Under the pieces are notes generated by a model, which did no database searches, was not told where the DNA came from, and worked only from the letters and a program-made list of their open reading frames with translations. Made by a program: the position numbers and the translations under genes. Of a DNA stretch of 64,000 nucleotides, positions 2,692 through 49,926 are shown one piece after another (position 1 is the first letter of the stretch; each line of letters begins with the position of its first letter). The stretch comes from Cetorhinus maximus (Eukaryota), in contig NC_135901.1 of the NCBI RefSeq assembly GCF_964194155.1, positions 20,274,001 through 20,338,000 of the forward strand. The letters are read 5' to 3'.

Positions 2692-3672
2692 TCAACAAAT
2701 CAGTGAATCCCTACCAACACTCAGAGTAGGTGAAGGGCATCTATCCTCGGTGTGAACTCGACGGTGTTTCTCCAGGCTGGGTGAATCAGTGAATCCCTTC
2801 CCACACGCAGTGCAGGTGAATGGTCTCTCTCCAGAGTGAACTCGTTGGTGTGTGCGCAGGCTGGACGACTCAGTGAAACCCTTTCCACACACAGAGCAGA
2901 TGAATGGCCTCTCTCCGGTGTGAACTCGCCGGTGCTTCCACAGGCTCGATGAATCAGTGAATCCCTTCCCACACTCACTGCAGGTGAACGGCCTCTCTCC
3001 AGTGTGAACTCGCTGGTGTGTCAGCGGACTGCTTGACTGAGTGAAACCCTTCCCACACTCGGAGTAGGTGAATGGCCTTTCCCCAGTGTAAGCTTGCTGG
3101 TGTCGCAACAGGCTCGATAACTGAGTGAATCCCTTTACACACACGGGGCAGATGAATTGCCTCTCTCCGATGTGAACTGCCCAGTGATTCTGCAGGGTGG
3201 ATGATTCATTGAATCCCTTCCCACATACAGAGCAGGTGAACGGCCTCTCCCCAGTGTGAACTCACTGGTGTTTCAGCAGGTGAGATGACCGAGTGAATCC
3301 CTTCCCACACTCAGAGCAGGTGAACGGTCTCTCCCCAGTGTGAACTTGCTGGTGCTTGCGCAGGGCAAATGAATTAATGAATCCCTTCCCACACTCAGAA
3401 CAGGTATATGGCCTCTCCCCAGTGTGAACTCGCTGGTGTCGCCGCAGGGCGGATGAATGAGTGAATCCCTTTCCACATTCAAAGCAGGTGAAAGGCCTCT
3501 CCCCGGTGTGAATCTGTTGGTGTTCCTGCAGCGTGGATAACTGAGTGAATCCCTTCCCACACTGAGAACAGGTGAACGGCCTTTCCCCAGTGTGAATGCG
3601 GCGATGTGTTTCCAGCTGGGATGGGAAACTGAACCCTTTCCCACAGTCCCCACATTTCCACGGTTTCTCCAT
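2692..3672 (-). pseudogene. C2H2 zinc-finger locus ZF-1, about 11 fingers, disrupted
   Basis: Starts MEKPWKC with TGERP linkers. One in-frame TGA at 3262-3264 (CGA>TGA), several damaged fingers, and a 3' end frameshifted near the LTR. Splice acceptor at 4028-4029, exon-1 donor at 5004. Could still encode a 136-aa truncated product. Confidence 0.8.
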
Positions 3673-4998
3673 GGTGCCGGTATCCTTGTGTCTCTTCCAG
3701 GCTTAACAATCAGTTAAAGTCTCTTCTACCACAGAACATACGTATGGTTTCTTCCCTCTGTGAATGGTGTGATTTTTTTGTCAGGCTGTGTAACTGGTTA
3801 AAGCTCTTTCCACAGTCAGTGCACTGGAACACTCTCACTTGGGTGTGTGTGCTCAGTGCTTTTCCAGTCACACTGATGTTTAAAATCTTTTGAAACAGAG
3901 AGCAGACAAACATTTCTGCATCTAGATTCAGAGGCTGATGATATTCAGGTCCCATCGAATCAAGTGTCCGTCAGATCTGGAAATGTTATTTGAGGTTTCT
4001 GTCTGCAAATCCTCCCCTTCTAATCAGCTGTCAAAAGAGTTTACAAAAGTCATCACTGTCAGTATAGGATAAAAATTCAGAACAGACAATTCTAGTTTCT
4101 ATGGAACATTCTTTCCTCTCTCATTGCTAAAAGCTGTAAATCTCTGTCCCACACACTCTCCCTCCGTTCTCACTCTGCTGTACCTAATAATCAGCCTCCC
4201 AATTTTCCTGAAGGTGATGATACATGCTGATCGAAAAATCCATGCTCACATGAAAATCTTCATGCAGGCTGCTAGCCTCTGTCCATATTACTGGACTAAA
4301 AATGTGTGTAATATAGAGGACTTCATTACTTGATTAGAGATAAAGAGAGAATGTGAGGAAGAACTTTATTTAGGCAGTCAGCTGTCGTGGCCTGGAACTC
4401 GCTGCCTACGAGGCTGGTGGAAGTAGGGACGATCAAATGATTCAAAATGAAATTGGATAAAGACTTGAAGGAAATAAACTTGCAGGGTTCTGGGGATATA
4501 GAGGGGAAAAGGAATGACTGGATTGCTCCACAGAGAGCCAGCATGGACTCGAGTTGCCTTTTGGATTCCTTTGATGTTGTGATGACTCAGCGGTTGGAAA
4601 TATATAACGTAGCTACAGTACTATATTAGAAAGCAATAAAATGTTGTAAATTTTCTTTATTACCATAAATAATATATCACCTAAGTAACATATAACAACA
4701 CTAGACATATTTTTGTCCTATATTAACTTACGTTCCCTTAAATGCCAGCTATCTCCTGGGGAAAACATCCCTTTAATTGTGAACATTAAGAAAGAGACCA
4801 TCCTTTTTGCCAGACAAATAAATGTGTCAAGCTGAGGGAGCAAAGGATGTCAATGTCGTTAAGAGAGAGACCTGGGCCAACCTTTCCAGAATCTGCACCC
4901 TCCCAGGATTCACTTCCCTTCCCTTCAGTTCCTGCAAGTCAACAATTTACCCCCAGAATTAGAAAAGAAATGGAAAGAGGAAGGAAAGAAAGTGTTTT

Positions 4999-5330
4999 AC
5001 TCACAGATGATGGACACAGGAGGAAGTTTCAGGTTGTGTGAAGCTCAATCTTCAGTGTCACAAAGTACGCGCTCTGATTGGCTGGAGGACCAGAGTTCTT
5101 CCGGACCGAACCGCAGCAAGAACGTGGGATGGGCTCTCCCTGGCACATGCGCATTTTCCCTCTCCGTTAGACATGCGCGGTCCCGGGTCGCCCGTCCGCT
5201 CGATGGATTAAGCTGTTTCCCCAGCGCGAGGACTTGTGGGGGCTGCAGCCGCCATTACTCATCCAGAGCTCAGCTTCCAAACTCCTGGGACTGGGATGAA
5301 AAATGGGAGTGGAGGGCGCAGTGACCTCAG
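4999..5330. promoter_or_regulatory. CpG-rich promoter and non-coding exon 1 of ZF-1, facing ZF-2 divergently
   Basis: CpG-rich; CTGATTGGCTG CCAAT box near 5075; CATGCGC motifs; minus-strand GTGAGT donor at 5004-4999. Confidence 0.6.
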
Positions 5331-5756
5331 TCTGTTCAAATAGTTTGTCAGCTTCAGGCGTAAAGATTTGACTAAAATAAAAATTGAAAATCTTGGAGAC
5401 AATCACAAGGCCTGGCCACATGTGTGGAGAGAGAAACAGAGTTAACATTTTGAGTCCAATATGGCTCTTCTTCAACGAAGATTTGAAACACCTGGGTGAC
5501 ATATTGTGAAAGACAATAAGTGAGTGTGAAACTGAACCTGAGAGTCAGCACCTTCTGGGGAGGAGAATTGGTAGAAAAGCAGGAGGAGGATAATTGGATG
5601 AATTAAGGTTACAATCAATAGGGAGAAGGGAGTGTGTGGGGGGACAGAGATTTGTCATTTGCGAGGGAGAAGGATGTTCCATGACAACTAAAATTGACAG
5701 TTCTGGATTTCTACTCCTCGCTCACAGTAATGTATTTTTGCAATCTCCTTTTACAG

Positions 5757-6500
5757 GCGATTAGTAGGGAGGATTTGCAGACAGCAACCACAAACCAAAC
5801 ATAACATGAAAATCTGATATAGTCACTCGATTCATCAGGTCCTGACGATCATCGGCCCTTGAATGTGGAAGGAGAAACGTTTGTCTATTCTGTCTGTGGG
5901 AAAGGTTTCAGATATCAGTGTGAGGCTTAAATTGATCATCCAAGCTGATGATGGCCAACTGTTACCAGACTGGTGATGAATTATATAATCATGACAGTAG
6001 ATGAGATTTTGTGAAAGCGTGCAGCCACAGTGGGTTGAGGCCATTCATATGCTCTGTCGGTGGGAAGTTCACTCACTGAACTTGATACCCACCAGTGTGC
6101 ACACACAGGGGTAGATCCATCTGCTTCATCTGTGGGAAGAGATTCATTGTGTCAGTCAACCTGCTGGCACACCAGTGAGTTCACTCCAGGGAGAGGCCCT
6201 TTAAAAGTTCCATGTATGGGAAGGAATCCAGCCAATCTTCCAGCCTGTTGGCACACCAATGATCTTACACCAGGCTATGGCTGTTTAAGAATTCCACTTG
6301 TGGGAAGGGATTCGCTCGCTCATCCCACCTTCTGACACACTAGTGACTTCATGTTTGACTGCAGGGGTTAGATTCTGCTGTTCTTGCTGCTGTTAATCAC
6401 ATCCAGGATTGAACCATATTCATTCTAACAGTTGGGGTCTGTTGCTGCTGTTATTAATCCCTATAACTGGGCTGGAGTTTAATATTCTGGTAATGTCAAA
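5757..6500 (+). pseudogene. Highly decayed zinc-finger remnant ZF-2
   Basis: Cassette acceptor TTTTACAG at 5756, broken fingers at 6040-6350, family 3' UTR (ggggttagattctgctg) at 6360. Confidence 0.7.
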
Positions 6501-8074: not shown

Positions 8075-8900
8075 GGGTAGTCCATGTCCAAATGTAGCAA
8101 GGCCTGGACAATATCTAGGCTTGGGCTGACAAGTGACAAGTAACATTCGTGCCACAGAAATGTCAGGCAATGACCATCTCCAACAGGAGAGAATCCAACC
8201 ATCGCCCCTTGATGTTCAATGGCATTATCATCACTAAACCCCCCACTATCAACATTCTGGGGGTTACCATTGACCAGAAACTGAACTGGCCTAGCCATAT
8301 AAATACTATGGCTACAAGAGAAAGTCAGAGGCTAGAAATAGTGTGATGAGTAACCCACCACCTGACTCCCCAAAGCCTGTTCACCAATTACAAGGCACAA
8401 GTCAGGAGTGTGATGGAATACGTCCCACTTGCCTGGATGAGTGCCGCTCCCATAACACTCAAGAAGCTTGACACCATCCAGGACAAAAGTAGCCCGCTTG
8501 ATTGGCACCACATCCACAAACATTCACTCCCTCCACCACCAACGCGCAGTAGCAGCAGTGTGTACCATCTACAAGATGCACCACAGGAATTCACCAAGGC
8601 TCCTTCAACAGCACCTTCCAAACCCACGACCACTACCATCTAGAAGGACAAGGACAGCAAATAGATGGGAAAACCACCACCTGGAAGTTCCCCTCCAAGT
8701 CACTCACCATCCTGACTTGGAAATATATCGCCGTTCCTTCACTGTTGCTGGATCAAAATCCTTTAATTCCCTTCCTAACAGCACTGTGGGTGTACCTACA
8801 CCACATGAACTGCAGTGGTTCAAGAAGGCAGCTCACCACCACCTTCTCAAGGGCAACTAGGGATGGACAATAAATGCTGGCCCAGCCAGCGAAGCCCTCG
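8075..8900 (+). mobile_element. 5'-truncated CR1-group LINE, same family as 51525-54760
   Basis: RT C-terminus (AWADK...KCQAMTISN...ILGVTIDQKLNW) and the family tail caccaccttctcaagggcaa. Confidence 0.85.
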
Positions 8901-10370: not shown

Positions 10371-10399
10371 GGATTTATATTGACAGTAACAAGGGTTGA

Positions 10400-13900: not shown

Positions 13901-14193
13901 TGGAACAGAGACAAATGTATATATTTTAGATCTACCTGTAGTGGTGGGCAGAAAACTATTTACTATCCAGGATAAAATAAATGTCCTTCATCTGCTTTTG
14001 CAGATCATTTCAGTGGAAATGTGTGCTCCCAGGCTCAAAGAGCTTCAGCCCACTGGGAGCAAAGTTGTGAGAACGGCCAGTCCAGCAGAAAGAGACCCTC
14101 CGACCCTCCCACTTCACCAACTGTCAGAGTGAACATTGTTCAGTTCAGGATGTGATTTACAGCAGCAATAACAGCAGAATCTAACCCCTGTAA

Positions 14194-14868
14194 CTACTTG
14201 TGAACTCGCTGGTGTCTCAGCAAGTTGGATACCTGAGTGAATCCCTTCCCACAGTCAGAGCAGATGAAGGGCCTCTCCCTGCTGTGAACTCGCCGGTGTG
14301 TCTGCAGGCTGGATGAATCACTGAATCCCTTCCCACACTCAGAGCAGGTGAAAGGCTTCTCTCCGGTGTGAACTCGCTGGTGTCTCAGCAGATTGGATAC
14401 CTGAGTGAATTCCTTCCCACAGTCAGAGCAGGTGAATGGCCTCTCCCCGGTGTGAACTCGCTGGTGTCTCAGCAGGTGAGATGACTGAGTGAATCCCATT
14501 CCACACATGGAGCAGGTGAACAACCTCTCCCCCGTGTGAACCTGCCGGTGTGTCACCAGATGTGATGACTGAATGAATCCTTTCCCACAATCAGAGCAGG
14601 TGAATGGTCTCTTCCCAGCGTGAACTCGCTGGTGCTTCCGCAAGGTGGATGAATCACTGAATTCTTTCCCACACTCAGGGCAGGTGAATGGCCTCTCCCC
14701 ACTGTGAACTCGCTGGTGTGTCAGCAAGTGGGATGACTGAGTGAATCCCTTCCCACACATTGGGCATGTGAATGGCTTCTCTCCAGTGTGAATGCGTTGA
14801 TGAGTTTCCAGCGCAGATGGGGAGGGGAATCCCTTCCCACAGTCCAGACATTTCCATGGTTTCTCCAG
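14194..14868 (-). CDS. C2H2 zinc-finger protein ZF-3 (8 fingers; canonical ATG replaced by CTG at 14868, next ATG at 14760)
   Basis: Open frame [10 protein letters not shown]...HQRVHK*, 224 codons. Acceptor at 15235-15236, exon-1 donor at 16272. Confidence 0.7.
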
Positions 14869-16266
14869 GATGTGGGTATTCTTGTGTCTCTCCAGGTTAG
14901 AAGATCAGTTGAAGCCTCATCCAGACACAGAACAGGTGTATGGTCTCTCCCGTCTGAATGGTGCGATGTTCTTTCAGGCTGTATAACTGGTTTAAGCTTC
15001 CACAGTCAGTGCACTAGAACACTCTCACTGAGGTGTGTGGATGTGTGTATCTTGGTGCTTTTCCAGTCACCCTGATGTTTAAAACGTTTTGAAGCAGACA
15101 AAGCAGACAAACATTTTTCCTTCTAGATTCAAACACTGATGAAATTCACGTCTGATGAATTTAGTGACTCTGTCAGATCTGGACATGATGTTTCATTGGA
15201 GATTTCTCTCTGCAAGTCATCCACTTCTAATATCCTGCAAAAGGAGTTTACAAAGTCATCACTGTCAGTACAGGTTAGAAATTCAGAACAGGCAATTCTA
15301 ATTTCTATGGAACATTCTTTCCCCTCTCATTACCCAAAGGCTGTAAATCTCCATCCCACACACTCTCCCTATACTCTCACTCTGCTGTACCTAATATACA
15401 CCCTCCCAATTCTCCTGAAATTCATGCTGATTTACAGATTCATGCTCATTGCATTCCTGTCCTGAACACAGAGACCTGAAAATCTTCATGCAGGCTGCTA
15501 GCCTCTATAGATGTCTATAATATGGACTAAAAATGTGAGTGATATAGAGGATTGTATCACTTGATTAGAGATACAGGGGGAATGTGAGGAAGAAGTTTCC
15601 TTTGGCAGCGAGTGGTCATGATCTGGAACTCGCTGCCTACGAGGATGGTGGAAGCAGAGATTATCAAGGATTTCACAATGAAATTGGATGGACGCTTGAA
15701 GGAAATAAACTTGTAGGAACAAGGGATATAGAGGGGTAATGGTCTGACTAGATTTCTCTCCAGAGAGTTAACATGGACTCAAGTTGTTGAATGGAATCCT
15801 TCTGTACTGTAATGTCTCTCTGACTGGAAATATATAACGTAGTTATAGTACTTTATTACAAAAATATAAATAATTATAAACATACTTTACTGCTGAAACA
15901 TAAATAATATATCTAATATGTACTATATAACAACACTGGACATATATCTGCTGTTATCATGTGAAGACCAATAAGGTTAATAAACAAATTCCCAGGCAAC
16001 CCCAATGGAATAAACTGAAGGACAAGGTTTCACTTTTTAAAATTTTTACTGTAGCAATCAAGCTAAAAGGAACATAAGTGAAGCCTGCATTAACAGGCAA
16101 ACAGGATTTGAATAGACAGGATAAATTTGACTTTAAACAGTTGATACAATAAAAAACAGGCTCCACAAAATCACCAGCATTTCCCCCTCTCAGCATATTT
16201 GGCATTAATTCCAGTTACAGCCCCACAACTCTCTGTATTTCCCAGGCAAAGGAAATAAAGTGTTTC

Positions 16267-16809
16267 ACTCACAGATGTTGAACAGAGGAGGAAGTTTTTG
16301 TGTGTGTGAAACTAAAAACAAACGCTGAGCTGATGAAATCAGACGACAGGACTTGGAAGAAATTAAAGCGAAGACATTTTGTCAAGTCTCCTCCCCTACC
16401 CCAGCTGGCAGCCTAGCGCGCAGGCGCAGAAACAGCTGCTGGCCCGAGCAGGCGCACTGCGGCTGCAGTCAGCGGTCGCTCTCGATCTCTTTTTGGCCCA
16501 GCCAGCCGCCGTAGAGAATGATTGGGGAGGCGGAGTTCGCCGAGCGGCTTCTCGCTCTGGCCGGAGCCGTCAGCCGGTTGCCTGGAAACCTCGGCTGGAG
16601 AAGGTGTCGGAGGAGGGGGAACAAAGGGTGGGGGCGGGGATCCCGTGTCCGCGCGCCTGGCCTGCAGACTGGAACCCGAGCACGTCACCGCGGAGCAGAC
16701 TGATTCCTATTGGCTGATTCAGGCAGGGTTCCATTGTGGACGTCACAACGCGGAAGTTGGACAATGAGCTTCAGACTGAAACTTCCTCCTCTGGGCAACA
16801 TCTGTGAGG
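16267..16809. promoter_or_regulatory. Bidirectional CpG-island promoter of ZF-3/ZF-4
   Basis: Outward-facing exon-1 donors (16272 minus, 16804 plus); X-box-like GTTGCCTGGAAAC at 16577; ACGTCA twice; ATTGG boxes; CGGAAGT. Confidence 0.7.
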
Positions 16810-17099
16810 AAATCAGTGTTTCCCTCTGACCATTTCTTTTCGAATTCTGGGGGTAAGTTGTTGACTTGCAGGAACTAAAAGGAAAGTAAGTGAATCCAGG
16901 GAGAGTGTAGACTCTGGAAAGGTTGGCCCAGGTCTCTCTCTTGAGACATTGACATGCTTTGCTCGCTCAGCTTGACACACTTATTTGCCTTGCGAAAAGG
17001 ACGGTCTCTTTTGTAATGTTCACAATTAAAGGGGTGGCTTCGCAGGAGATGAACAGCATTTAAGTGAAGAGTAAATTAAAATAAGACAGAGATCTGTCT

Positions 17100-18540
17100 A
17101 GTTTTTTTATTCATTCACAGGATGTGGGCTTCGCTGGCTGAGCCAGCATTTATTGCCCATCCCTAGTTGCCCTTGAGAAGGTGGTTGTGAGCTGCCTTCT
17201 TGAACTGCTGCAGCCCATGTGGTGCAGGTACACCCACAATGCTGTTAGGGAGGGAGTTCCAGGATTTTGACCCAACAACAGTGAAGGGACGGCAATATAT
17301 ATTTCCAAGTCAGGATGGTAAGTGATTTGGAGGGGGACTTCCATGTGGTGGTGTTCCCATCTATCTGCTGCCCTTGTCCTAGATGGTCCTGCCGAGGGTT
17401 TGGAAGGTGCTATCTAAGGACCCTTGGTGAATTCCTGCACTGCATCTTGTAGGTGGTACACACTGCTGCTACTGTTCATCAGTGGTGGAGAGAGTGAATA
17501 TTTGAGGATGTGGTGCCAATCAAGCGGGCTACTTTGTCTTGGATGGTGTCAAGCTTCTTGAGTGTTGTGGGAGCTGCACTCATCAAGGCAAGTGGGGAGT
17601 ATTCCATCACACCCTTGACTTGTGCCTTGTAGATGGTGAACAGGCTTTGTGGGGTCAGGAGGTGAGTTACTCGTCGCAGGATTCCTAGCCTCTGACCTGC
17701 TCTTGTTGCCATAGTATTTATATGGCTAGTCTTGCTCAGTTTCTGGTCAATGGCAACCCCAAGGATGTTGACAGTGAGGGTTTCAGTGATGGTAATGCCA
17801 TTGAACGTTATGGGGTGATGGTTAGATTCTCTCTTGTTGGAGATGGTCATTGTCTGACATTTGTGTGGCACGTATGTCACTTGCCACTTGTCAGCCCAAG
17901 CCTTGATATTGTCCAGGTCTTGCTGCATTTGGACATGGACTACTTCAGTATCTGAGGAGTCAAGATTGCTGCTGAATATTGTGCAATCATCAATGGTTCT
18001 GACCTTATGATGGAAGGAAGGTCACTGGTGAAGCTGGTGAAGCAGCTGAAGATGGTTGGGCAGAGGACACTACCCTGAGGAACTTCTGCAGCGATGTCCT
18101 GGAGCTGAGATGATTGACCTCCAACAACTACAAACATCTTCCTTTGTGCTAGGTATGACTCCAACCAATGGAGAGTTTCCCCCTGATTTCCATTGACTCC
18201 AGTTTTACCAGAGCTCCTTGACGCCACACTTGGTCAAATGCAGTCTTGATATCAAGGGCAGTCACTCTCACCTCGCCTCAGGAGTTCAGATCTATTGTCC
18301 ATGTTTGAACCAAGGCTGTATTGAGGTCAGGAGCTGAGTGGCCCTGGTGGAATCCAAACTGGGTCTCAATGAGCAAGTTATTTCTAAGCAAGTGCCATTT
18401 GATAGCCCCATTGATTACCCCTTCCATTACTTTACTGATGATTAAGAGTAGGCTGATGGGGCGGTGATTGGCCGCATTGTGTACAGGTCTTAACAGGGCA
18501 AATTTGACATAGCTGGGTAGCTGCAGTGCAACAGCTTGGC
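17100..18540 (-). mobile_element. 5'-truncated CR1-group LINE, same family as 51525-54760, in the ZF-4 intron
   Basis: ORFs 17479-17928 and 17940-18227 (VPQGSVL, QQDLDNIKAWADKWQV); family tail and A-rich end at about 17100. Confidence 0.88.
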
Positions 18541-19485
18541 TGGATCTGCATGCTATATGTATATGATAGGTATTGTTTATGGTTCTCTAATCAAGTACAT
18601 TAATTTTATTTCTAGTCTGGTAATGTTCTGCTGCATATATTTCCAATCATAGGATCATTAAGGCATAGAAGGAATCCATACAGCAACTCAATTCAATACC
18701 GACTCTCTGTCGAGCAACACACACAGTCCCATTTTCCTTCGATATCCCTGTAGCCCTGCAAATTTATTGCTTTTAAGTGCCCACCTAATTTCATTTTAAA
18801 ATCATTGATCATCTCTGCTTCCACCACCCTCATGGGCAGCAAGTTCCAGATCATGACCGTTCACTGCCTACATAAAAGTTCTTCTTCACATCCCCATGTT
18901 TCAAATAATACAGTACTATATATTACAAGAATTTTTAGTCCATATATATATATAGAATCAGTAAGTATGGATCTGTCAATCAGCACAAATCGACACCTTC
19001 AGAAACATTTGAAGGTTGTAAATTAGGTACAGCAGAGTGGGAATGGAAGTAGAGTGTGTGGGCATGGATATTTACAGGTTTTTGGGACCGAGGGAAAAGA
19101 ATGTTCCGTGGAAACTGGAATTGTTTTTCTGAATTTCTATCCTGTACTGACAGTGATGACTTTTGTAAACCTCTTTTACAGAATATCAGAAGGTGAGGAT
19201 TTTCAGAATAGAAATCTCAGCATGTCAAGATCTGACAGTGTCACTTGATTCATCAACCCCTGAATATGATCGGCCTTTTTAACATCAGTTTGACCAGAAA
19301 AGCACCAACACACACATGTGAGTGAGATTGTTCCAGTGCACTGACTGTGGAAAGAGCTTTACCCAGTTACACAGCCTGAAGAAACATCACATCATTCACA
19401 GCAGCGGAAAAACCGTAGATGTGTTCTGTGCGTGAACGAGGCTTCAACTGATTGTTGAACCTGCAGACACAAGGACACCCGCACA

Positions 19486-20328: not shown

Positions 20329-20689
20329 TTATTGAGGAGTTTGGATTCTACTGTTGTTGTTGCTGTTAATCACATCCTTGACTGAATTTTGCACATTCTG
20401 CCAGCTGGCAAACTGGGAAGATTGGAGCGTTTCTTTCTGCTGGACTGGCCAGTCTCCAGTGGAATGATGCTCTTTGTGCCTCGTTACGAACTTCAATTTC
20501 TTATTTCATAAGGATCACAGAATGAAAAGGTGTTTTGAAGGTAAATGATATTTAGTTTGCATTTCTGTTTGGAACATCCCAAAGCTTGCCACATTGCCTT
20601 GGAGATGGGCAATGGAGGTTCGAAGGATCTTTTGCTTCATTTATCTGGGTGTTCCTCACAGAATGCAATTGCAGATTTGTTCTTGTATC

Positions 20690-23900: not shown

Positions 23901-23954
23901 CCATTTGGTTTCAGGTATCAACATATTTTGTTTGTTCTTTATTTTAGACATCAG

Positions 23955-31780: not shown

Positions 31781-32040
31781 GAGCTGTCTTCTCACAGCCC
31801 ATTTCCACAGGCAGTCCCAAGGGTCTCATCCTCTGGATCTCTCATTGTTGGATTCCCCCAGTCTTTTTGCTCTTCTTTTCCCAGCTGCTTGGACTTCCTC
31901 CCTCTCCATCCCCCCAGTCAACTTCACTGTTCTGTTACTGACAGTCCTTTCGTCCTGAACACCCCAACCTCTCAAATCCTAAAAACAAAAAGCTAAAAGC
32001 TACTGCCTGTTTCTCATCTCTTTTCAACACAAACTGTTTT

Positions 32041-32971: not shown

Positions 32972-34354
32972 AAAATACTTTCTTTTCTCCCCCTTTCCAT
33001 TTATTTTCTGGGTTTAAATTGTTGACTTGCAAGAACTGAGGGAAAGTGAAGTGAATCCAGGGAGGGTGCAGACTCTAGAAGGGTTGGCCCAGGTCTCTCT
33101 CTCTTAAAGACATTGACATCCTTTGCTCCCTCAGATTGACACACTTATTTGTCTGGTTAAAAGGATGGTCTCTTTCCTAATTTACACAATTAAAGTGGTG
33201 GTTTCCCCAGGAGATGGCTGACATTTAAGGAGACAATAAATTCATATAGGACAGAGATATGTCTAGTGTTGTTATAAGGTACATATTAGAAATATTATCT
33301 ATGGTATTGTAATAATGTACATTTATTATTCTACTTTTTAAATATAGTACTGTATACATTTCCAGTCATAGTTATCACAAAACTGAAGGAGACCATCAGC
33401 AACTCCTCTGTCGAGCAATCCAGTCAGTCCCATTCTCCCTCTATACACCTGTTAGTTTATTTCCTTCAAGTGCCCATCCTGTGTCATTATCTGGCTAGTT
33501 GTAAACAGACTAACATCCCTCTGAAACCCCTCCATTTATCTAAAAAATGCAAATTCCCTTCACACTTTACACGCTAAGCCAGCATCCATGTGTACTCATT
33601 AGCATTTCAAACACATTTCTACACCTAGCTTCTTTTGATAATCCCAAGCTTGCAGTCTACCTGACTGCACATATAATTAAATCACACAGACAGACCCAAC
33701 ATACTCACACCCGTAAACGTACTTCACAATAAACCAGAAAAATATTATGAAAATGATTATACTTCCATTACATATATAATATATATACCAGCAGCCTGCA
33801 TAAAGATTTTCAGGTCTCGGTGTCTAAGACATGATTCTGTGTTCATAGATCTGTCGATCAGCATGAATTGCTCCTTCAGCAAATTGTTAGGGTGAATATT
33901 GGGTACAGCAAAGTGAGAATAGAGTGTGTGTATCTGGGATGAATCTTGGGGAGCAAGAGACTGATTACTTTTGTAAATTCCTTTTGCAGGATATTGGAAG
34001 GGGAGGTTTTGCAGCCAGAAATCCCGAACCAAATATCACGTTAAGATCTGACAGAGTTGCTTGTTTTATTGGGGCCTGAATATCATCGACCTTTCAATAT
34101 GGAAGGAGAAATGTTTGTCTGTTCTGTCTGTGGAAAAAGATTTCAAACATCAGTGTGACTGGAAAAACACCGAAGGACGAACACCCAAGTTAGAGTGTCC
34201 TAGTGCACTGACTGTGGAAAGAGCATTAATCAGTTACACAGTCTGAAAAAATATTGTATCATTCACAGTGAGGAGGAACCGTACACATTTTCTGCGTGTG
34301 GACAAGGCTTCAACTGATTGTCCAACCTGGAGAGACACCAAGGACACCGGCACC

Positions 34355-35270
34355 ATGTAGAAACCATGGAAATGTGCGGACTGTGGGAAGGGATTCAGAT
34401 CCCCATCTGGAGATTCATCGACGCAGTCACTCTGGGGAGAGGCCGTTCACCTGCTCTGAGTGTGGGAAGGGATTCAGTAATTCATCCAACTTATTGAAAC
34501 ATGAACAGGTTCACACTGGCAAAAGACCATTCTCCTGCTCTGAGTGTCAGAAAGGATTCATATCCTCATCAGAGCTGGAGATTCATCGACGCATTCACAC
34601 TGCGGAGAGACCGTTTGCCTGCTCTCAGTGTGGTGAGGGATTCAGTAATTCATTCAGCTTATTGAAACATGAACGAGTTCATGCCAGCGAGAGACCATTC
34701 ACTTGCTCTGACTGTGGGAAGGGATTCACTCAGTCATCCAACCTCCAAATACACAAGCAAATTTACACTGGGGAAAGGCCATTCTCCTGCTGTGTGTGTG
34801 GGAAGGGATTCAGTGATTCATCCAGTCTGCAGAAGCACCAGCGCGTTCACACTGGGGAGAGACCCTTCACCTGCTCTGTGTGTGGGAAGGGATTCAGTGA
34901 TTTATCAAGTCTGCAGAAGCACCAGCGCGTTCACACTGGGGAGAGGCCATTCACCTGCTCTGAGTGTGTTAAGGGATTCACTCGGTTGTCCAACCTGCTG
35001 ACACACCAGCGAGGTCACACTGAGGAGAGACCATTCACCTGCTCTGAGTGTGGGAAGGGATTCACTCGATCATTCCACCTGCTGAGACACCAGCGAGTTC
35101 ACATTGCAGAGAGGCTGTTGACCTGCTCTGACTGTGGAAAGCGATTCACTGATTCATTCAACTTGCGAACACACCAGCGAGTTCACACTGGGGAGAGACC
35201 AATCATCTCAGTGTGGGAAGGGATTCATTCAGTCATCTCACCTGCAGACACACCAGCAAGTTCACAAGTG
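34355..35270 (+). pseudogene. C2H2 zinc-finger locus ZF-6 (about 10 fingers), disrupted
   Basis: ATG is immediately followed by TAG (34355-34360); frameshifts in the first and last fingers; middle frame is open (ORF 34296-35309); acceptor at 33989. Confidence 0.75.
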
Positions 35271-38200
35271 ATTACAGGGGTTGGATTCTGCTGTTATTGC
35301 TGCTGTTAATCGCATCCAGGACGAAACCATGTTCATTCTGACAGTTGTGAAGTTGGAGGGTCAGAAGGTTTCATTCTGCTGGATTGGCCGGTTTCACGAC
35401 TTTGAGCCTGGGAGTTTACATTTCCACTGAAATGATCTGCAAAAGCTGTTGGACGACATTTATTTTGTCCTGGATAGTAAATAGTGTTTTTCCTACAGAT
35501 AGATCTCAAATAAATACTTTTGTCTGTGTTTCATTGAGTCTACAGCACAGTCGGCTCAATTGGTCTGTGTCAGTATTTATGGTCCACATGAGCCTCCACC
35601 CACCTCTCTTCATCTCCCCCCATCAGCAAATCCTTCTATTCCTTTATCCCTAACGTATGTGTCTAGCTTCCCCTTCAATGTATTCATGCTATTCACCTCA
35701 ACCACTCACTGTGGTAGTGAGTTCCACATTCTCAGGTTTCTCATGAAATTGTTCCCTAAAGGTTAAATGTTCAGTACTGGTATTGTTCTTATGAATCTTT
35801 GTTGCCCCTTCTCCAGTGCCTCGATTTCCTTTTTCTAAATGGAAATCACAAATGTTAACAGTACTCCCAGTGTAGTCTAACCATGGTTCTGAACAAGTTG
35901 AACATATTCTCCCTGCTTTTCAATTTTATCCTAGTAGAAATGACCCCAAATGGGCCCCAAACGAAAGGAAATGTGTCAAGTTCTTCGAAAGGCTGGAGAG
36001 AGGGTTTATGACAATGGCACCAGGGATGAGGGTCTTAGTTAGTTGGAGAGACTGGAGCAGCTGAAATTTCTGCCTTTAGATCAAAGAGTCATTAGGGCTG
36101 AAAAGGAGGACATTAAGCCCGTTTAGTTCATGCTATCTCTCTGTAGAGCATAGCAGTCAATCCCATTGCCCTGTTCCATCCCCATATCCCTGTAGGCTTA
36201 TTTCCCTCATTCCATCATTTCTGCTTCTACCACACAGGAAGTGGGTTTGAGGTCATTATCACTCGCTTTAAATGTATACGAGGTTCCTGGAGCACAGATG
36301 GAGGCCATTTGGCCCATCATGCTCATGCCAACTCTTTAAAAGACCCATCCAATTAATCCCTAAACCCAGCGGGCTTGGAGTTTCAGAGTATTCAAGATGG
36401 TGTCAAAGACATGGTCATTACACAACGTTAAAGCTCAATCTTTATCAATGATTTTGAAGAGGGGTGCCGAGTGTAATATATCCAAATCTGTGGACAATTA
36501 GAAAAAATGCATTTCCATAGCACCTCTCACGACCACAGGACCTCCTGAAGCAGTTTAAAGCCAATGAAATACCTTTAAAATGTAGTCACTGTCGTAATGT
36601 AGGAAACTATAGGTAGGCTTGGGTAATCAAAATCAGTTTTAAAATCAATTGTTTTCATACCATATTCAGTATTATAAGAAACAAGGTCAAGGAAGCCATC
36701 TTAACCTCTAACATGTGGCTTCTTGCAGCCTTTTCATATTCTGAACTTTTCTTTATTTACTATATATTGATTCCATGTTAAAAGCCAATCATGAAACAGA
36801 TGATTATTCAATAATGAACCTTGATTAAGTTATCATTAGTGAATTAGTGTAATAGACAATTATATTGTAAAGGCTGGATCTTTATTTTTTAAAATTAACA
36901 CTGTACGAACCAAAATGTTTATTCCAAAAAGGAAAAAAGCAGAGCTAGCAGAAATTCTTTTCTAATTTTGATAAATTATAAGACACCATATTCTGGCAAA
37001 GTCCAGCTCAAGAATATGGCTCATTGTTCAATCCAAACAAGATTAGTAAGAAGCAAAGCTATTGTCTTCCACAAATTGTGTTTTTGAACCAGTCTATCTT
37101 GTATTAACCAAATGTATTAACTAAAGTTTACTGTATTAATTAGCTAGCAGTCAGCAACAGATGATTGAATAACTAGTGAACCTTAATTAAGTTACAAATA
37201 ATGAATCAATAATGAATCAGTAGTTATAGTAAAAGACAGTTGATTTGCTGTAAAAATGTAAAACCTTAATTGCTGTGTATGTGAAGAATGTGCAATGAAG
37301 ATAAATGTAGTGGCAAGAGAGACCTTCAAGCTCTGATTAGCCTCAAAATCTAAAACTGTATGAATAAGGGATGGTATAGAATCAGATGAAGGGATAGCAT
37401 GAAATAGTTCTATTGTATTCCTGTCTGAGATGAGAGATGATGTAAGTAATTGGGGATCCAATTAAATTAATCGAGTAACTAAATTGACCAATTGTCAACG
37501 TACAACAAGGCCCACTCTGATGTGAGGTAATGGTCACTTTGGGGATAAAAGTAGAGGTTCCAAAGGTCTTCCTTGCTAGCCAAGTACGGAAGATTTCCGA
37601 GGCCAAGTTCCAAGGAAATTACTGTCAAAGAAGGAGCCAGATTCCCAAGGCCAAATTCCACAAGAATTATTGCCAAAGGAGCCAGAGAGGGTTACACTTC
37701 TACAGACTGATCACCCACATGACGTTGTAAAAGTCAATGTCTTAAAGTTGTTAAGTAAACCTTTATCTTTTAATAAACTTTAAATCTGCTATCCAGAGAA
37801 TTCTGCCTTTGCTTTAATTGGTTAAAATCTTGACCAAACTAAAGTTAATTTATTAAATGGCAAGTTGAGGGTAGATAAAATCAATTAAGTTACAGATATC
37901 AAGATCAGGTAACGTGAATTTAAAACCTTGCATTTCTATAGCGTTTTTCACGACCACAGGATATCCCAAAGTGCTTTACAGCCAATGAATTACTTTTGAA
38001 GTGCAGTCACTTTGTAAAGTAGGAAACACGGCAGCAAATTTACACACGGCAAGATCCCACAAATAGCTACGTGAGCAGATGATCTGTTTTTAGTGATGTT
38101 GATTGATAAATATTGGCCAGGACACCGAGGATAACTCCCCTGCTCTTCTTTGTAAGAGCGGCCATGTGAACTTCTAAATCCTCCTGAAGTAACAGACACG

Positions 38201-40582: not shown

Positions 40583-41030
40583 TCACATGTGAACTCGTTG
40601 GTTTGTCAGCAGATTGGATGACTGAGGGAATCCCTTCCCACACTCGGAGCTGGCAAACGGCCTCTCCCCAGTGTGAACTCGCTGGTGTAACAGCGGGTGA
40701 GCAGAAAGTGTGAATTTCTTTGCAAACTTGGAGCAGGTGAATGGCCTCTCTCCAGTGTGAATGCGTAACTGAGTTTCCAGCTCAGACAGGGATCTGAATC
40801 CATTCCCACAGTCCCAATATTTCCACGGTTTCTCCATGGTGTTGGTGTTTCCCCAGGTTGGATGATCAGTTAAAGCATCCCCACACACAGTATATGTGTA
40901 TAGTCTCTCCCCGCTGTAACTGTTGCTCAATCTCCTGCTGGCAATTGGGAGGTCTGTGAACTCGCTGGTGTGTCAGCAGGTGGGATGAATGGGTGAATCC
41001 CTTCCCACAATCAGCAGAACCTTCTATTCC
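40583..41030 (-). pseudogene. Short zinc-finger remnant ZF-7
   Basis: MEKPWKYWDC..., about 3 fingers lacking Cys/His ligands; family 3' UTR start at 40580; no promoter or acceptor seen. Confidence 0.8.
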
Positions 41031-44200: not shown

Positions 44201-45165
44201 CTAAAGAGAGAAATTTCAGTTACTCCAGTCTCTCCAAGAAAGTGAACTCCCTCATCTCTGGTGCCATTCTTGTAAATCGCCGCTGCACCCTCTCTAAGAA
44301 CTACACATCTTTCCTTGCATTTTGAGCTCATATTTAGGGTTCTTTATCAGGGACAGAAATGAAGAGCAGGGAGGTAATGTTCAACTTGTTTTGAACCGTG
44401 GTTAGACTACACTGGGAGGACTGTCAACATTTGTGATCTCCATTTAGAAAAAGGAAATAGAGGCACTGGAGAAGGGGCACCGAAGATTCACAAGAATAAT
44501 CCCAGAACTGAGAGCATTTAACCCTCAGAAAAGGCTGCGGCTGCTTTTCTCTAGAAAAGAGAAGACTGGAGGAAGGGTGACCTGATGGAAGTCTTTAAGA
44601 TTATGAAGGGGTTCAATAATCCAATAGGGATTTCATGAGAAACATCTTTCCACAGTGAGTGGTGAGAATGTGCAACTCACTACCACAGTGAGTGGTTGAG
44701 GTGAACAGCATGAATACATTTCAGGGGAAGCTAGATACATACATGAGGGAGAAAGGAATAGAAGGAAATGCTGATGGGGGAGATGAAGAGAGTTGGTGGA
44801 TGCTCATGTGGAGCATAAATACTGACATAGGCTAATTGAGCCGACTGGCTTGGCCCCGTGCTGTAGACGCAATAGAACAAAAACAAATGTATTTATTTCA
44901 GATTGCCTGTAGTGGTAGGATAAACACAATTTACAACCCAGGATAAAATATGTGTCTTTCATCAGCTTTTGTGGGTCATTTCATTGGAAATGTGCCCTCC
45001 CAGGCTCAAAGAGCATCAGCCCACTGGAAGCAAAGTTGTGAGACTGGCCAGTCCAGCAGAAAGAAACCCTTCAACCGTCCCACTTCACCATCTGTTAGAA
45101 TGAACATGGTTCAGTCCTGGGTGTGAATAACAGCAGCAATAACAGCAGAATCCAACCCCTGTAAT
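41280..45165 (-). repeat. Right arm of the inverted segmental duplication; includes a tandem duplication of about 240 bp at 42070-42530
   Basis: Homologous to 35270-38800; repeated ttacctgatcttgataccctgtaactta...taatgaattcactttggttcaga. Confidence 0.85.
41715..42165 (+). mobile_element. Near-complete Deu-domain SINE
   Basis: tRNA-like head (gttcaagtcc) and cacattgctgtttgtgggatcttgctgtg...ttcattggctgtaaagcgctttggg. Confidence 0.75.
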
Positions 45166-46343
45166 CACTTGTGAACTCCATGGTGTCGCATCAGCTGTGA
45201 TGACCGAGTAAATGCCTTTCCACACTCCGAGCAGGTGAATGGCCTCTCCCCGGTGTGAACCCTCTGGTGTGTCCGCAGGTTGGATGAATGACTGAATCTC
45301 TTCCCACACTCATAGCAGCTGAACGGCCTCTCCCCGGTGTGAACACGCTGGTGTGTCAGCAGGTGGGATAACTGAGTGAATCCCTTCTCACACTCAGAGC
45401 AGGTGAACGGCCTCTCCCCAGTGTGAACTCGCTGGTGTTTCTGCAGATTGGATGAATCAGGGAATCTCTTCCCACACTCGGAGCAGGTGAATGGTCTCTC
45501 CCCAGTGTGAACTCGCTGGTGTGTGAGCAGATGGGATGAATCACTGAACCCCTTCCCACACTCGGAGCAGGTGAACGGCCTCTCCCCGGTGTGAATTCGC
45601 TGGTGCATCAGCAGGTGGGATGACCGACTAAATCCCTTCCCACATGTAGAGCAGGTGAATGGTCTCTCCCCAGTGTGAATTCGTTGGTGCATCAGCAGGT
45701 TGGATGAATCACTGAATCCCTTCCCACATGTAGAGCAGGTGAATGGTCTCTCCCTACTGTGAACTCGCTGGTGCATCAGAAGGTTAGATGAATCAGTGAA
45801 TCCCTTCCCACACTTGGAGCAGGTGAACGGTTTCTCCCCAGTGTGAACTCGCTGGTGCCTCAACAGGTTTGATGAATCACTGAATCCCTTCCCACACTCA
45901 GAGCAGGTAAATGGTCTCTCCCTGGTGTGAACTCGCTGATGTGACTGCAGATGGGATAACTGAGTGAAACTCTTCCCGCAGTCAGAGCAGGTGAATCGCC
46001 TCTCCCCACTGTGGACTCGCTGGTGCATTAGCAGGTTGGATGAATCACTGAATCCCTTTCCACACTCAGAGCAGGTAAATGGCCTCTCCCCAGTGTGAAC
46101 TCGCTTATGCGTCTGTAGGTGGGATGAACTAGTGAATCCCTTCCCACACACGGAGCAGGTGAATGGCCTCTCTCCGGTGTGAAGTCGCTGGTGTGTCTGA
46201 AGGGAGGATGAATGAGTGAATCCCTTCCCACATTCGGAGCAGGTGAATGGCCTCTCCCCAGTGTGACTGCGTCGATGAGTTTCCAGTTGATATGGGAAGT
46301 TGAATCCTTTTCCACAGTCCCCACAATTCCACGGTTTCTCCAT
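45165..46343 (-). CDS. C2H2 zinc-finger protein ZF-8 (14 fingers, 392 aa)
   Basis: Intact ORF of 14 x 28 aa; Kozak ACCATGG; acceptor at 46705-46706; exon-1 donor at 47347. Confidence 0.92.
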
Positions 46344-47341
46344 GGTGTTGGTGCCCTTGTGTCTCTCCCAGTTTGATGATCAGTTGAAGCCTCGTCCACT
46401 CACAAAACACCTGTATGGTCTCATCCCACTGTGACTGGTGGTGGTTTTTTCAGGCTGTGTAACTGGTTAAAATTCTTTCCACAGTTATACACTGGAACAC
46501 TCTAACTTGGGTGTGTGTGTCTCACTGCTTTGCCAGTCACACCGATGTTTAAATCTTTTAAAGCAGACAGAACAGACAAATATTTCTCCTCCTGGATTCA
46601 AAGACCGGTGGTGTTCAGGTCCTGATGAAACGAGTGACTCTGTCAGATCTTGAAGTGATGCTTGATTTGAGATTTCCCTCTGCAAATCCTCCCCTTCTAG
46701 TATCCTGTAAAGGGAGTATACAAAAGTCATCACTGTCAGTACAGAATAGACATTCTGAACAGACAATTCTAGCTCCTAAGGAAAATTCTATCCTCTGTCT
46801 ATTCCCAAAAGCTATCAATCTCCACCCTACACATTCTCCCTCCATTCTCATTCTGCAGTACCTATTACACACCCTCCCAATTCTGATGTAAAATGTGTAC
46901 ATATAGTTATTGTTGTATATTACATACATTTTAGTCCATTTTATATGACTAGAAACACATTACAAGAATAAAAATAATAATAAATGTACATTATTAGGGA
47001 ATCAGAATTAAAATGTCTAAAAGTCCCATATAACAACACTAGATATATCTTTGTCCGACGTTAATTTACTGTCCCCTTAAATGTCAGCCGTCCCATGGGG
47101 AAACCACCCCGTTAATTGTGAACATTAGGAAAGAGACCATCCTTTTAGCCAGACAAATAAATGTGTCAAGCTGAGGGAGGAAAGGATGTCAATGTCTTTA
47201 AGAGAGTGAGAGACCTGGACCAACCTTTCCAGAATCTGCACCCTCCCTGGATTCACTTCCTTTCTCCTCAGTTCCTACAACTCAACAATTTAAACCCAGA
47301 ATTAGAAAAGAAATGGAAAGGGGGAGAAAAGAAAGTGTTTT

Positions 47342-47904
47342 ACTCACGGATGTTGGACACAGGAGGAAGTTTAGTCCGTGTGAAGCTCAATCTTCATTTA
47401 CACAAAGCAGGCGCTCTGATTGGCTGGAGGACAACAGTCCCTCCGGTGCTTCCTGCCGTCAACCGGTTGCCTGGAAACCTCGGCTCGAGAAGGTGTAGGG
47501 GGAGGGGGAGGGGGACAATGGGCGGGGGCGGCGCTCCCGTGTCCGCGCGCCTGGCCGACTTGCTGGTTTCGGCAGTGTTGCGTTGTGGACGTCACAATGA
47601 CTCAGTGGTTCGTCCCCAGCACGCGGTGTCCCATTGGGAGCAATATGACTGGTTACAGAAGCAAATTACTGGGGATTGGACAACAGCTCAGCGCGTCTCG
47701 AGGTCAAAGTCTCTCCCGCTCCCACGTGGGCTCGGGTTCCGCTTCCATATTGTCTTCAGGCGGGGCGGAGGCGGTGTAATTCGCAGTGGTGAACCGGAAG
47801 GATTCCGATCATCCAACCAATCAGGGCGCGAGCTTTGTGCCAATGGCTCCACGGAGCTTCCTCTATTGTCTGAATGCTGAGGTTGGACAATGAGTTTGTA
47901 AACC
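47342..47904. promoter_or_regulatory. Bidirectional CpG-island promoter of ZF-8/ZF-9
   Basis: CCAAT blocks at both ends, X-box-like site at 47466, GGACGTCAC, GC boxes, CCGGAAG. Confidence 0.7.
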
Positions 47905-48038
47905 CAAGATAAAAGCAAAATACTGCGGATGCTGGAAATCTGAAACATCAGAAGAGTCATACGGACTCGAAACATTAACTGTTTTCCTCTCCGCAGATGC
48001 TGTCAGACCTGCTGAGTTTTTCCAGGTATTTTTGTTTT
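47905..48038. mobile_element. Penelope-derived inverted insert with a 14-bp TSD
   Basis: TGAGTTTG(T/G)AAACC at 47891-47904 and 48039-48052. Confidence 0.75.
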
Positions 48039-48199
48039 TGAGTTTGGAAACCTGTTCATTGCTGCCCAGCAAAGCTGCTGGTGCTCTGGTGCTGCTCCTC
48101 TCTCTCTGAATGCACCCAATTTAATTTTGAAATTATTTGTCTTTGCTTCCACCATTCTCATAGGCAGAGTCCCAGATTATGACTGCTTGCTCTCACAGT

Positions 48200-48635
48200 A
48201 TCATAGTATCTTTACAGTGCAGAAAGAGGCCATTCACCCCATCAAGTCGACACTGGCTCTCTGAAAGACCATTCCATGTAGCCCCATTCCCCTGCCTTAT
48301 CCCTGTAACCTCGCACATTCTCAGCCTTGAATATACTTAACAACCCAGCCTCTACAGCCCTCTGTGGTAAAGAATTCCACAGACTACCCTCTGAGAGAAG
48401 AAATTCCGCCTCATCTCTGTCCTAAATGGGCGACCCCTTATTTTGAGGTTATGCCCTCTGATCCTAGACTCTCCCACAAAGGGAAACAGCCTCTCAGCAT
48501 CTACCCTGTCAAGCCCCTTAAGAATCTTATATGCTTCAATAAGGTTGCCTCTCATTCCTCCAAACTGCAATAAGTACAGGCCCAACCTACTCAACGTCCC
48601 CTCATAAGAAAATCCGTCCATATCTGGGATTAACC
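48200..48635 (-). mobile_element. CR1 LINE 3' fragment
   Basis: ORF 48352-48621, RGNLIEAYKILKGLDRVD. Confidence 0.85.
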
Positions 48636-49176
48636 TGCTGCTGCTTCAGGAGAATTGGGAGAGTAAATATTCAGTACAGCAAAGTGAGAATGGAGAGTGT
48701 GTATCTGGGTCAACTTTTAGGGAATGAGAGAGGAAAGAATTTTTGTTAGAAACTAGAATTGTTTGTTCTGAATTTCTGTCTGGTACTGACAATGCTGACT
48801 TTTGTAAACTCCTTTTACAGGCTATTAGAAGGGGAGGATTTGCAGATAGAAATCTCAATCCAAATGTCATATGAAGATCTGACAGAGTCACTTAATTGAT
48901 TGGGACCTGAATATCATCGACGTTGAATCTAGAAGGAGAAATATTTGCCTGTTCTGTCTGCTTCAAAAGGTTTTAAATATTAGTGTGACTGGGAAAGCAC
49001 TGAGACACGCACACTGGCATGTTCCAGTGCACTGATTGTGGAAAGAACTTTGACGAGTTGTGCAGTTGAAAGAAAATCACAGATTTCACAGCATGGAGAG
49101 ACTGCACCCCTGTTCTGTGTGGGGGCAAGGCTTCAGCTGAGTGTGGAACCTGGAGAGACACAAGGACACCCGCACC

Positions 49177-49926
49177 ATGGAGAAACCGTGGAAATGTGGG
49201 AAGGGATTCAGATCCCCTTCAGAGTTGGAAGCTCATCGACGCAGTCACACTGGGGAGAGACCGTTCACCTGCTCTGATTGTGGCAGAGGATTCAGATCCT
49301 CATCTAAACTGGAGATTTATCTATGCAGTCACACTGGGGAGAGACTATTCACCTGCTCTGAGTGTGGGAGGGAATTTATTCATTCATCCCACTTACGGAC
49401 ACACCAGTGATTTCACACCAGGGAATGGCTATTCATATTCTCTGAGTGTGGGAAGGGGTTCAGTCATTCATCCGCCCTGCTTATGCACCAGCGAGTTCAC
49501 ACTGGGGAGTGACCGCTCACCTGCTCTGACTGTGGGAAGGGATTCAGTGATTCATTGAGCCTGTGACTGCACCAGTGAGTTCACACTGGGCAGAGGCCGT
49601 TTCAGCTGCTCTGACTGTGGGAAGGGATTCAGTGATTCATCTCACCTGCAAACACACCAGCGAGTTCACATTGGGGAGAGACCACTCACTTGCACCAAGT
49701 GGGGGAAACAATTCACTCAGACATCCAGCCTGCTGACACACCATGTCACTCACACCAGTGAGAGACCCTTAAATGTTTTGACTGTGGGAGTGAGTTCAAA
49801 AGTGCTGCAAGTCTGACGGTCCACCAACGCATTCACACTGGAGAGAGGCCATTCACCTGCTCTGTGTGCGGGAAGAGATTCACTCAGTCATTGCGCCTGC
49901 TGAGGCACCAGGGAATTTACAAGTGA
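49177..49926 (+). pseudogene. Zinc-finger pseudogene ZF-9
   Basis: [11 protein letters not shown] (deleted Cys pair), multiple TGA stops and frameshifts; acceptor at 48820; well-preserved family 3' UTR. Confidence 0.85.

Follow-up and report, generated by a model that had tools for sequence, protein, structure and literature searches.

Vertebrate bidirectional CpG-island promoters are TATA-less and CpG-rich, carry CCAAT and GC boxes, have outward first exons within 1 kb, and are usually single-copy sequences linking unrelated genes. Repeated head-to-head pairs have been described for the silkmoth (Bombyx mori), in which the chorion A/B and HcA/HcB genes are reported to make up a tandem multigene locus of pairs that are strictly head-to-head, with about 330 nt between the partners and one promoter in common; the partners are two distinct eggshell protein families, 44 pairs lie in less than 1 Mb, the Hc pairs are more than 90% identical, and small exon 1, large exon 2, inverted groups, pseudogenes and gene conversion are all part of that description (PMC4639761). 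Here we examine an arrangement of C2H2 zinc-finger (ZF) genes in a shark, Cetorhinus maximus, starting from a window of 64,000 nucleotides (C24:20,274,001-20,338,000, the contig measuring 65.2 Mb and the genome 3.99 Gb), in which ZF arrays stand in divergent pairs around CpG-rich promoters.

Among zinc-finger genes, the mammalian C2H2/KRAB-ZNF clusters are described as evolving by birth-and-death, with tandem and multigene block duplication and, in dog, a repeated -,+,+ triplet; the main text of that work has neither 'head-to-head' nor 'bidirectional' and no repeated two-faced promoter unit (PMC2443715). The cyprinid FiNZ-ZNF genes, hundreds of lineage-specific genes on zebrafish Chr 4q, are reported to encode an N-terminal domain, to show positive selection and to repress transposable elements, in a paper whose main text gives no match for shark, chondrichth, catshark, cartilaginous or head-to-head (PMC10547256). 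Cartilaginous fishes have been reported to be without KRAB gene families (PMC8455134), and no description of the cassette treated here was found in the literature searched, most subscription journals being outside its coverage.

We regard it as probable that the window belongs to a chromosome-wide cluster of KRAB-less C2H2 genes, one subfamily of which is arranged head to head on a polarised and likely two-way promoter, and that these pairs likely descend from one inverted duplication, were multiplied mainly by the copying of multi-gene blocks, and were likely homogenised and re-paired by ectopic recombination. A first-pass annotation had seen in the window a bidirectional two-gene module made by inverted duplication and turning over like tetrapod KRAB-ZNF clusters. 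Its promoter, its outward first exons, the joint travel of partners and birth-and-death are retained below, whereas the unit of copying, the inversion of each pair, the KRAB likeness and the single promoter type are not.

Extent of the cluster

C24 was sampled over 1.4 Mb in 140 stretches, annotated with profiles derived from the window sequence; three 200-kb regions at 27.0, 28.0 and 30.25 Mb, picked for dense matches to the promoter core described below, are referred to as the dense samples. Arrays of the same family were present in 9 of 17 untargeted 10-kb samples of C24, spanning 6 to 60 Mb, family start motifs are found from 0.39 Mb onward, and the zinc-finger cluster occupies much of this 65-Mb contig. 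Since the start motif, with 535 exact occurrences in the genome, matches 28/156 sampled arrays, the total can be put at roughly 2,000-3,000 arrays or more. The paired cassette, whose promoter core exists in an estimated 190 copies, is therefore a minority subfamily and not the general layout of the family. Rfam gave no match in the window.

A conserved promoter between divergent genes

Nine C2H2 arrays (ZF-1 to ZF-9) lie at 2692-49926 in the strand order - + - + - + - - +, and two further arrays (+ +) at 58075 and 62214, beyond that range. The arrays, together with CpG-rich windows at 5101-5400, 16201-16800, 32101-32400 and 47401-48000 (observed/expected CpG 0.59-0.87), confirm the four divergent pairs (1/2, 3/4, 5/6 and 8/9) around CpG promoters that had been noticed before. 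Homologous exon-1 sequences pointing outward were likewise borne out by copies ending in ct|GTGAG on both strands, with donors after 16273 (-), 16803 (+), 32047 (-), 32965 (+), 5005 (-) and 47348 (-).

Pairs 3/4, 5/6 and 8/9 have in common a core of about 190 bp in the same orientation, 85.9% identical over 191 bp between the first two; pair 1/2 is without it. An exact 20-mer of this core occurs 128 times genome-wide (61 forward, 67 reverse; reversed control, 0), and the first 100 matches listed are all on C24, most of them at 26-30 Mb. Because the 20-mer is exact in 24/35 sampled cores, we estimate about 190 cores in the genome. Divergent arrays flank 32 of the 35, and by type of gap the core is present in 32/47 divergent, 0/46 convergent, 0/19 '++' and 3/15 '--' gaps. 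It is polarised, the left exon 1 lying about 160 bp from its left edge and the other exon 1 adjoining its right edge. Motifs which we take to be RFX-like, GC-box, CRE (cAMP response element)-like and CCAAT were counted in 30, 33, 33 and 29 of the 35 cores, respectively, and a TATA-like element in 2/35. With divergent first exons 350-870 bp apart in CpG-rich, TATA-less DNA, the cassette has the form of a bidirectional promoter.

The promoter of pair 1/2 is a separate type (type 2), with 32 exact matches to a 21-mer, all on C24; we put the number of type-2 promoters at about 120. Among 24 matches in the dense samples, 18 had no partner array within 2.5 kb and the partners of the other six were remnants of 2-3 fingers, none intact, although a few of these rows may be partial matches. 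Pair 1/2 lacks the type-1 core and belongs to a type whose partner is dead or missing in 24/24 sampled matches.

In the dense samples, 73/91 neighbouring arrays switch strand, where 47 would be expected (p<=1e-5), and divergent gaps are shorter than convergent ones (medians of 3.6 and 5.8 kb). Alternation was not significant in 264 kb around the window (20/36 switches, p=0.35) nor at 6, 50 and 60 Mb, a small sample (12/22, p=0.53). Orientation, predicted to be non-random, is so in the three core-dense samples but not significantly so around the window or at the three distant positions; alternation as a chromosome-wide rule is rejected, being non-significant at 20.2-20.4 Mb as well as at 6, 50 and 60 Mb.

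Probable transcription from both sides

Contigs of RNA type were placed on a typical cassette, L028; they are unstranded, stem from runs guessed to be RNA, and represent paralogues in related organisms. In run X6, contigs connect the donor of the right exon 1 with exon 2 (2820 to 3802/3803, the cut showing GT) and that of the left exon 1 with its own exon 2 (1352 to 2388), the in-between letters being the start of a paralogous exon 2, and the left-arm joint is also present in run X3. The DNA-like run X12 had neither exon joint among the rows listed. In the window, two contigs end at or just beyond the ZF-4 donor, which is a weak hint. Both exon-1 types are used in the family, a statement at the level of the family and not of a single promoter copy, and the conserved promoter likely fires both ways. 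The bidirectional module proposed earlier is upheld at that level by its two-faced conserved promoter, its outward first exons and the splicing of both exon-1 types. Another X6 contig links the left exon-1 donor to an intron-internal site (L028:1947-2389), which suggests an alternative exon.

Genes of the window

The genes have a short exon 1, which is likely non-coding, a single intron and an exon 2 with about three degenerate fingers in its 5' part; the reading frame opens at a conserved MEKPWKC and encodes fingers only. The features are as follows.

2692-4210, minus: ZF-1 exon 2 with 3' intron end, dead-finger 5' untranslated region and ZF array; early stop after 4 fingers
4692-5056, minus: ZF-1 exon 1 (A-type) and conserved intron 1 start; GT donor after 5005
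5057-5620, no strand: type-2 CpG promoter between ZF-1 and ZF-2, without the type-1 core; 24 homologous matches in the 27-30 Mb samples
5618-6436, plus: ZF-2, a decayed remnant whose start region is missing
6261-61346, plus: segmental-duplication block, with a collinear copy at C24:22.065-22.124 Mb and partial copies at 18.13-18.16 and 25.78-25.80 (inverted) Mb
14194-15417, minus: ZF-3 exon 2, 8 fingers, open frame; family start is CTG, common to two block copies
16244-16316, minus: ZF-3 exon-1 homologue; donor after 16273
16559-16752, plus: type-1 promoter core, short form, with RFX-like X box, GC box, two CRE-like GACGTCA and CCAAT box
16756-17110, plus: ZF-4 exon 1 (B-type) and intron 1 start; donor after 16803
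19001-20455, plus: ZF-4 exon 2, intact, 10 fingers
25096-26355, minus: ZF-5 exon 2, 4 fingers in open frame; family start is TTG
30731-31110, minus: second, gene-proximal exon-1 copy of ZF-5 and intron start; donor AT
32026-32100, minus: promoter-proximal exon-1 copy of ZF-5; donor after 32047
32168-32913, plus: type-1 promoter, long form, core and right extension (inverted homologue of the left side); interspersed repeat at about 32395-32642
32914-33275, plus: ZF-6 exon 1 (A-like) and intron 1 start; donor after 32965
33881-35392, plus: ZF-6 exon 2, frameshift after start; intact in the 18.16 Mb block copy
40583-41014, minus: ZF-7 remnant that has lost its exon 1, promoter and partner, as judged from the 22.09-22.10 Mb block copy (about 9 kb longer here)
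45165-46884, minus: ZF-8 exon 2, intact, 14 fingers; ATG at 46343
47030-47398, minus: ZF-8 exon 1 (A-type) and intron 1 start; donor after 47348
47454-47905, plus: type-1 promoter, long form, partial core; a repeat insertion (about 47910-48040) stands where the right exon 1 was lost
48647-50050, plus: ZF-9 exon 2, broken in the window and in the 22.11 Mb block copy

ZF-1, ZF-2, ZF-6, ZF-7 and ZF-9 are broken, and ZF-4, ZF-8 and ZF-11 are intact from the family start, whereas ZF-3 (CTG) and ZF-5 (TTG) have an open frame with a family start that is not ATG. No exon-1 homologue was seen for ZF-9, and the extra exon-1 copy of ZF-5 (31011-31110) has AT in place of its donor. At least one damaged partner in every pair, as first noted, holds in the window, with the status of ZF-3 ambiguous: its CTG (14194-14904, -) is shared by both block copies still carrying ZF-3, position -3 is A and position +4 is G, and the frame is open in two of the three copies (the window and two block copies), so that it is possibly a non-AUG start instead of damage.

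Some further features were observed. ZF-10 (56936-60378, +) is unpaired, has its own CpG promoter with repeated GCGCA(T)GC motifs, and contains a 409-codon open frame with an upstream ATG and an upstream finger, followed 3' by a decayed second array. ZF-11 (61250-63252, +) is intact, has 8 fingers and has a promoter of yet another type, homologues of which lie at 20.20, 20.21 and 6.0 Mb. About three dead fingers with short upstream ATG frames precede the coding start at 46380-46730 (-) and in equivalents elsewhere; by exact-pattern matching, TGA stands at one or both of two fixed places of exon 2 in 65/94 genes (6 of the 94 being without a start region), and CGA replaces the first of these family-wide TGAs in 2/94. 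Reverse-transcriptase fragments of long interspersed nuclear element (LINE) type lie at 8077-8897, 17103-18461, 27859-28927 and 53400-54760, with Pfam RVT_1 in the two frames tested; the copy at 27859-28927, 93-94% identical to copies elsewhere, has no counterpart in the 18.15 and 22.08 Mb block copies and was therefore likely inserted after the duplication. A 239-aa open reading frame (ORF) across the 8/9 promoter had no Pfam match.

Origin of the pairs

Between the two arms there is inverted homology, which runs from the array through exon 1 and, in long-form cassettes, on into the proximal promoter; in pair 5/6, for instance, 30731-31340 matches 33275-32673 at 75% over 623 bp. Even so, the distance in exon 2 is 0.215 within cassettes vs 0.203 between cassettes, and that in exon 1 is 0.191 vs 0.196, while upstream of the arrays the partners in the window are 70-79% alike and the left arms 77-83% among themselves. 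On the tree of exon 1 and intron 1, 17/19 right arms fall in one starred clade, the other two being those of long-form cassettes, and the nearest neighbour of this region was the same arm in 41/41; left and right ZF exons intermix on the trees (77 and 64 of 131 arrays had sufficient sequence). Because partners are not closest relatives and exon 1 is side-specific, the pattern fits one old inversion, followed by copying, and not one inversion per pair. Inverted duplication, proposed earlier for the pairs at large, would thus apply to the ancestral cassette only, and its repetition in each pair is rejected by the exon-2 comparison, in which partners are no closer than non-partners.

In the course of events that we envisage, one gene with its proximal promoter would have been duplicated in inverted orientation, giving the long cassette, as the homology between the arms suggests. 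Comparison of the two forms indicates that the short one equals the long one minus two stretches bearing short end repeats, and two deletions may accordingly have produced the short cassette that dominates 26-31 Mb.

Copying in blocks

The window itself is a duplicated block of three pairs with ZF-7 and ZF-10: positions 6261-61346 are collinear over 55 kb with C24:22.065-22.124 Mb (43.6 kb aligned, 92%), and two partial copies, one at 18.13-18.16 Mb (92%) and one in inverted orientation at 25.78-25.80 Mb (93.6%), both reach the ends of the sampled DNA. The copies have lost different genes, ZF-4 being intact in the window and at 25.78 Mb and truncated at 18.14 and 22.07 Mb, ZF-6 broken in the window and intact at 18.16 Mb, and ZF-8 intact in the window and truncated at 22.11 Mb. 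The dense samples contain 29 chains of duplicated sequence, each 4-41 kb long and 89-95% identical, of which 9 are direct and 20 inverted. In five cassette pairs, left and right arms alike group as close sisters (c12/34, c13/33, c14/15, c21/30 and c22/29). Arms have also been swapped: the right arms of c8 and c26 are 0.04 apart and their left arms 0.26, and in c25/c11 a left and a right ZF exon are only 0.036 apart. Direct and inverted blocks of 4 to at least 55 kb have thus multiplied the cassettes together with unpaired genes.

The first-pass proposal that the two-gene module is itself copied and lost, with its pairs arising by inverted duplication, has several points in its favour, namely the divergent flanking of 32/35 cores, the inverted homology of the arms in pair 5/6, and a tandem triplet of single-cassette units of about 12.7 kb (c26/27/28). 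Pairs do travel together, but mostly in multi-gene blocks that hold several cassettes and unpaired genes, the window included; moreover, partners are not closest relatives, arms are swapped in some cassettes, and in 24/24 cases the partner of a copied type-2 unit is dead or missing. As a general rule this model is already contradicted, and we consider it improbable.

Homogenisation and probable re-pairing near the promoter

In left and solo arms, the first 250 bp or so of intron 1 differ by 0.03-0.06, and the difference exceeds 0.2 past about 350 bp. Across 251 pairs the intron start remains flat at 0.030-0.042 while exon 2 ranges over 0.05-0.26. Inside co-duplicated blocks, by contrast, the intron start changes at about the intergenic rate (0.038 vs 0.049 at 27-30 Mb; 0.053-0.071 vs 0.048-0.056 between block copies of the window), and selection is therefore an unlikely cause of its uniformity. 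As many as 13/56 block ends lie in promoter modules, which make up 8% of the DNA. From these patterns we infer non-allelic (ectopic) recombination near exon 1: exchange within about 300 bp of exon 1 would have maintained the likeness of the DNA next to the promoter while carrying ZF exons from arm to arm.

A different behaviour was observed in the core. Between block duplicates at 27-30 Mb (L021-L040, L061-L100) the core and left promoter differ by 0.079-0.094 vs 0.049 for intergenic DNA, also outside CpG sites, and in the window only the 5/6 promoter shows raised divergence between block copies. A higher mutation rate at the start site, or conversion by other copies, could account for it.

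Purifying selection on regulatory sequence might instead keep promoter-proximal DNA alike, with re-pairing as an occasional by-product of block rearrangement and no special exchange zone. The promoter motifs are indeed retained in 29-33 of 35 cores, the intron start is slightly slower than intergenic DNA at non-CpG sites (0.034 +/- 0.005 vs 0.040, 27-30 Mb blocks), and selection could also produce an excess of singletons; however, a four- to five-fold slowdown would be needed, while recent duplicates differ at the intron start as they do elsewhere, 109/230 intron-start columns are variable, and the core evolves faster than its flanks. We hold this explanation to be quite unlikely. Even less credible is a spread of the module (about 1 kb, inverted arms included) into older ZF genes as a mobile or invertible element of the foldback or MITE (miniature inverted-repeat transposable element) kind. 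The module's star-like, young appearance, arms about 93% alike over some 320 bp and nearly balanced core orientations (61 vs 67) would agree with such an origin, but homology runs on through the intron and exon 2, fading over 100-150 bp with no sharp end, the compared cassettes show no reciprocal flip of left and right, and every one of the 100 cores listed lies on C24. We also reject flipping of the core in place, having seen 0 reciprocal cases in these cassettes.

Several observations weigh against our own reading, which combines one inversion, block copying and ectopic recombination. The three dense samples were chosen on core matches. Support from RNA is at the family level only, from unstranded contigs of related organisms; run X5 on L028 had neither joint among the rows listed, and around window pair 3/4 (14000-20500) no exon joint was found among the contigs listed, a region crowded by LINE and ZF contigs. 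Left and right trees are only weakly congruent (Mantel test: r=0.40, p=0.027 for 5' exon 2 in 15 cassettes; r=-0.15, p=0.79 for 3' ends in 16; r=0.12, p=0.28 for exon 1/intron 1 in 15). Block ends are not independent, and 19/56 also lie in ZF arrays, which are 14% of the DNA. The intron-start variants are star-like, with 99/137 alleles singletons and a Tajima's D of -2.39, a pattern that one past sweep would explain better than conversion acting steadily and without bias; either such a sweep or continuing biased conversion may be their source. The selection test is based on few pairs, and contact residues showed no positive selection (pN/pS, the ratio of nonsynonymous to synonymous differences, 0.45 over 19 recent pairs).

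Gene survival and protein function

In the dense samples 34/94 arrays are intact, and different copies are broken in the window and its block copies, in agreement with the birth-and-death turnover suggested at the outset. Among 32 scored cassettes, both arms are intact in 2, one in 17 and none in 13, close to independence, since 3.3 both-intact cassettes are expected at about 64% breakage. A damaged partner is therefore near-universal (30/32), as noted for the window, but the breakage rate accounts for it, and 'one damaged partner' as a design feature is rejected. With the C, F and H columns fixed by the finger pattern and hence uninformative, pN/pS at unconstrained finger positions was 0.30 in four both-intact pairs and 0.60 in six both-broken pairs. 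Contact positions -1, 3 and 6 are the most variable (2.7-3.2 bits). Copies died independently, some being retained under purifying selection.

A single 3' exon encodes the C2H2 fingers of these proteins, which stand in tandem and are joined by TGERP-type linkers, and KRAB was not among the best 25 Pfam families shown for four ZF ORFs. The sole KRAB-profile match in the genome (150/152 candidates scored) is at C34:9123034-9123144 (-), with 35.3 bits, and is possibly PRDM9; so low a number, together with the vertebrate-type genes, fits a cartilaginous fish. The likeness to KRAB-ZNF genes thus extends to the tandem fingers in one exon and to turnover, but not to the KRAB domain. KRAB-ZNF proteins typically repress transposons through TRIM28. 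A search with ZF-8 returned generic vertebrate ZF proteins (40-61% identity), with no cartilaginous-fish names among the 120 listed of 7,927 word-sharing candidates scored, which has no bearing on taxonomy. By analogy, the shark proteins would likely bind DNA in a sequence-specific manner, and perhaps do so at repeats. More tentatively, and with rather less than even probability, the promoter may act as a recombination hub, exchange in intron 1 keeping about 300 promoters uniform while reshuffling the ZF exons that face each other, so that new co-expressed, effector-less pairs would serve as a KRAB-independent genome defence.

Comparison with known systems

A vertebrate transcription-factor family is seen here to expand in a paired, chorion-like layout. 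The ordinary bidirectional promoters of vertebrates differ in that the shark promoter is a paralogous family of about 190 copies, each linking two members of one gene family. With side-specific first exons on near-identical promoters, it amounts to a natural experiment in which divergent transcription, conversion tracts and partner shuffling are measurable for each copy. KRAB families are reported lost in cartilaginous fishes (PMC8455134), yet by our rough estimate thousands of tandem ZF arrays exist in this genome. As in the mammalian KRAB-ZNF clusters described in PMC2443715, C2H2 genes are clustered in tandem and undergo birth-and-death and block duplication, although the shark proteins are without KRAB. 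The FiNZ-ZNF genes, as presented in PMC10547256, are comparable as lineage-specific ZF genes massed in one chromosome region of a non-tetrapod vertebrate, and a role against transposons is perhaps to be considered for the shark genes by the same analogy; unlike them, the shark ORF begins at the first finger, leaving no room for an N-terminal domain in exon 2, and recent pairs are without positive selection.

The closest parallel remains the silkmoth chorion locus, as far as its description in PMC4639761 goes, and by that analogy the cassette would work like the chorion pairs. In each case there are many head-to-head pairs whose partners share a conserved promoter, exon 1 is small and exon 2 large, and inverted groups and pseudogenes occur; homogenisation of the kind expected from chorion-type concerted evolution is seen here, compatible with conversion as with one sweep. 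In the shark, however, the two arms belong to one transcription-factor family, about 190 TATA-less cores (2/35 with a TATA-like element) are spread over megabases, and two thirds of the genes are broken; and while the chorion families are fixed on their sides, shark ZF exons move between arms and only exon 1 is side-specific.

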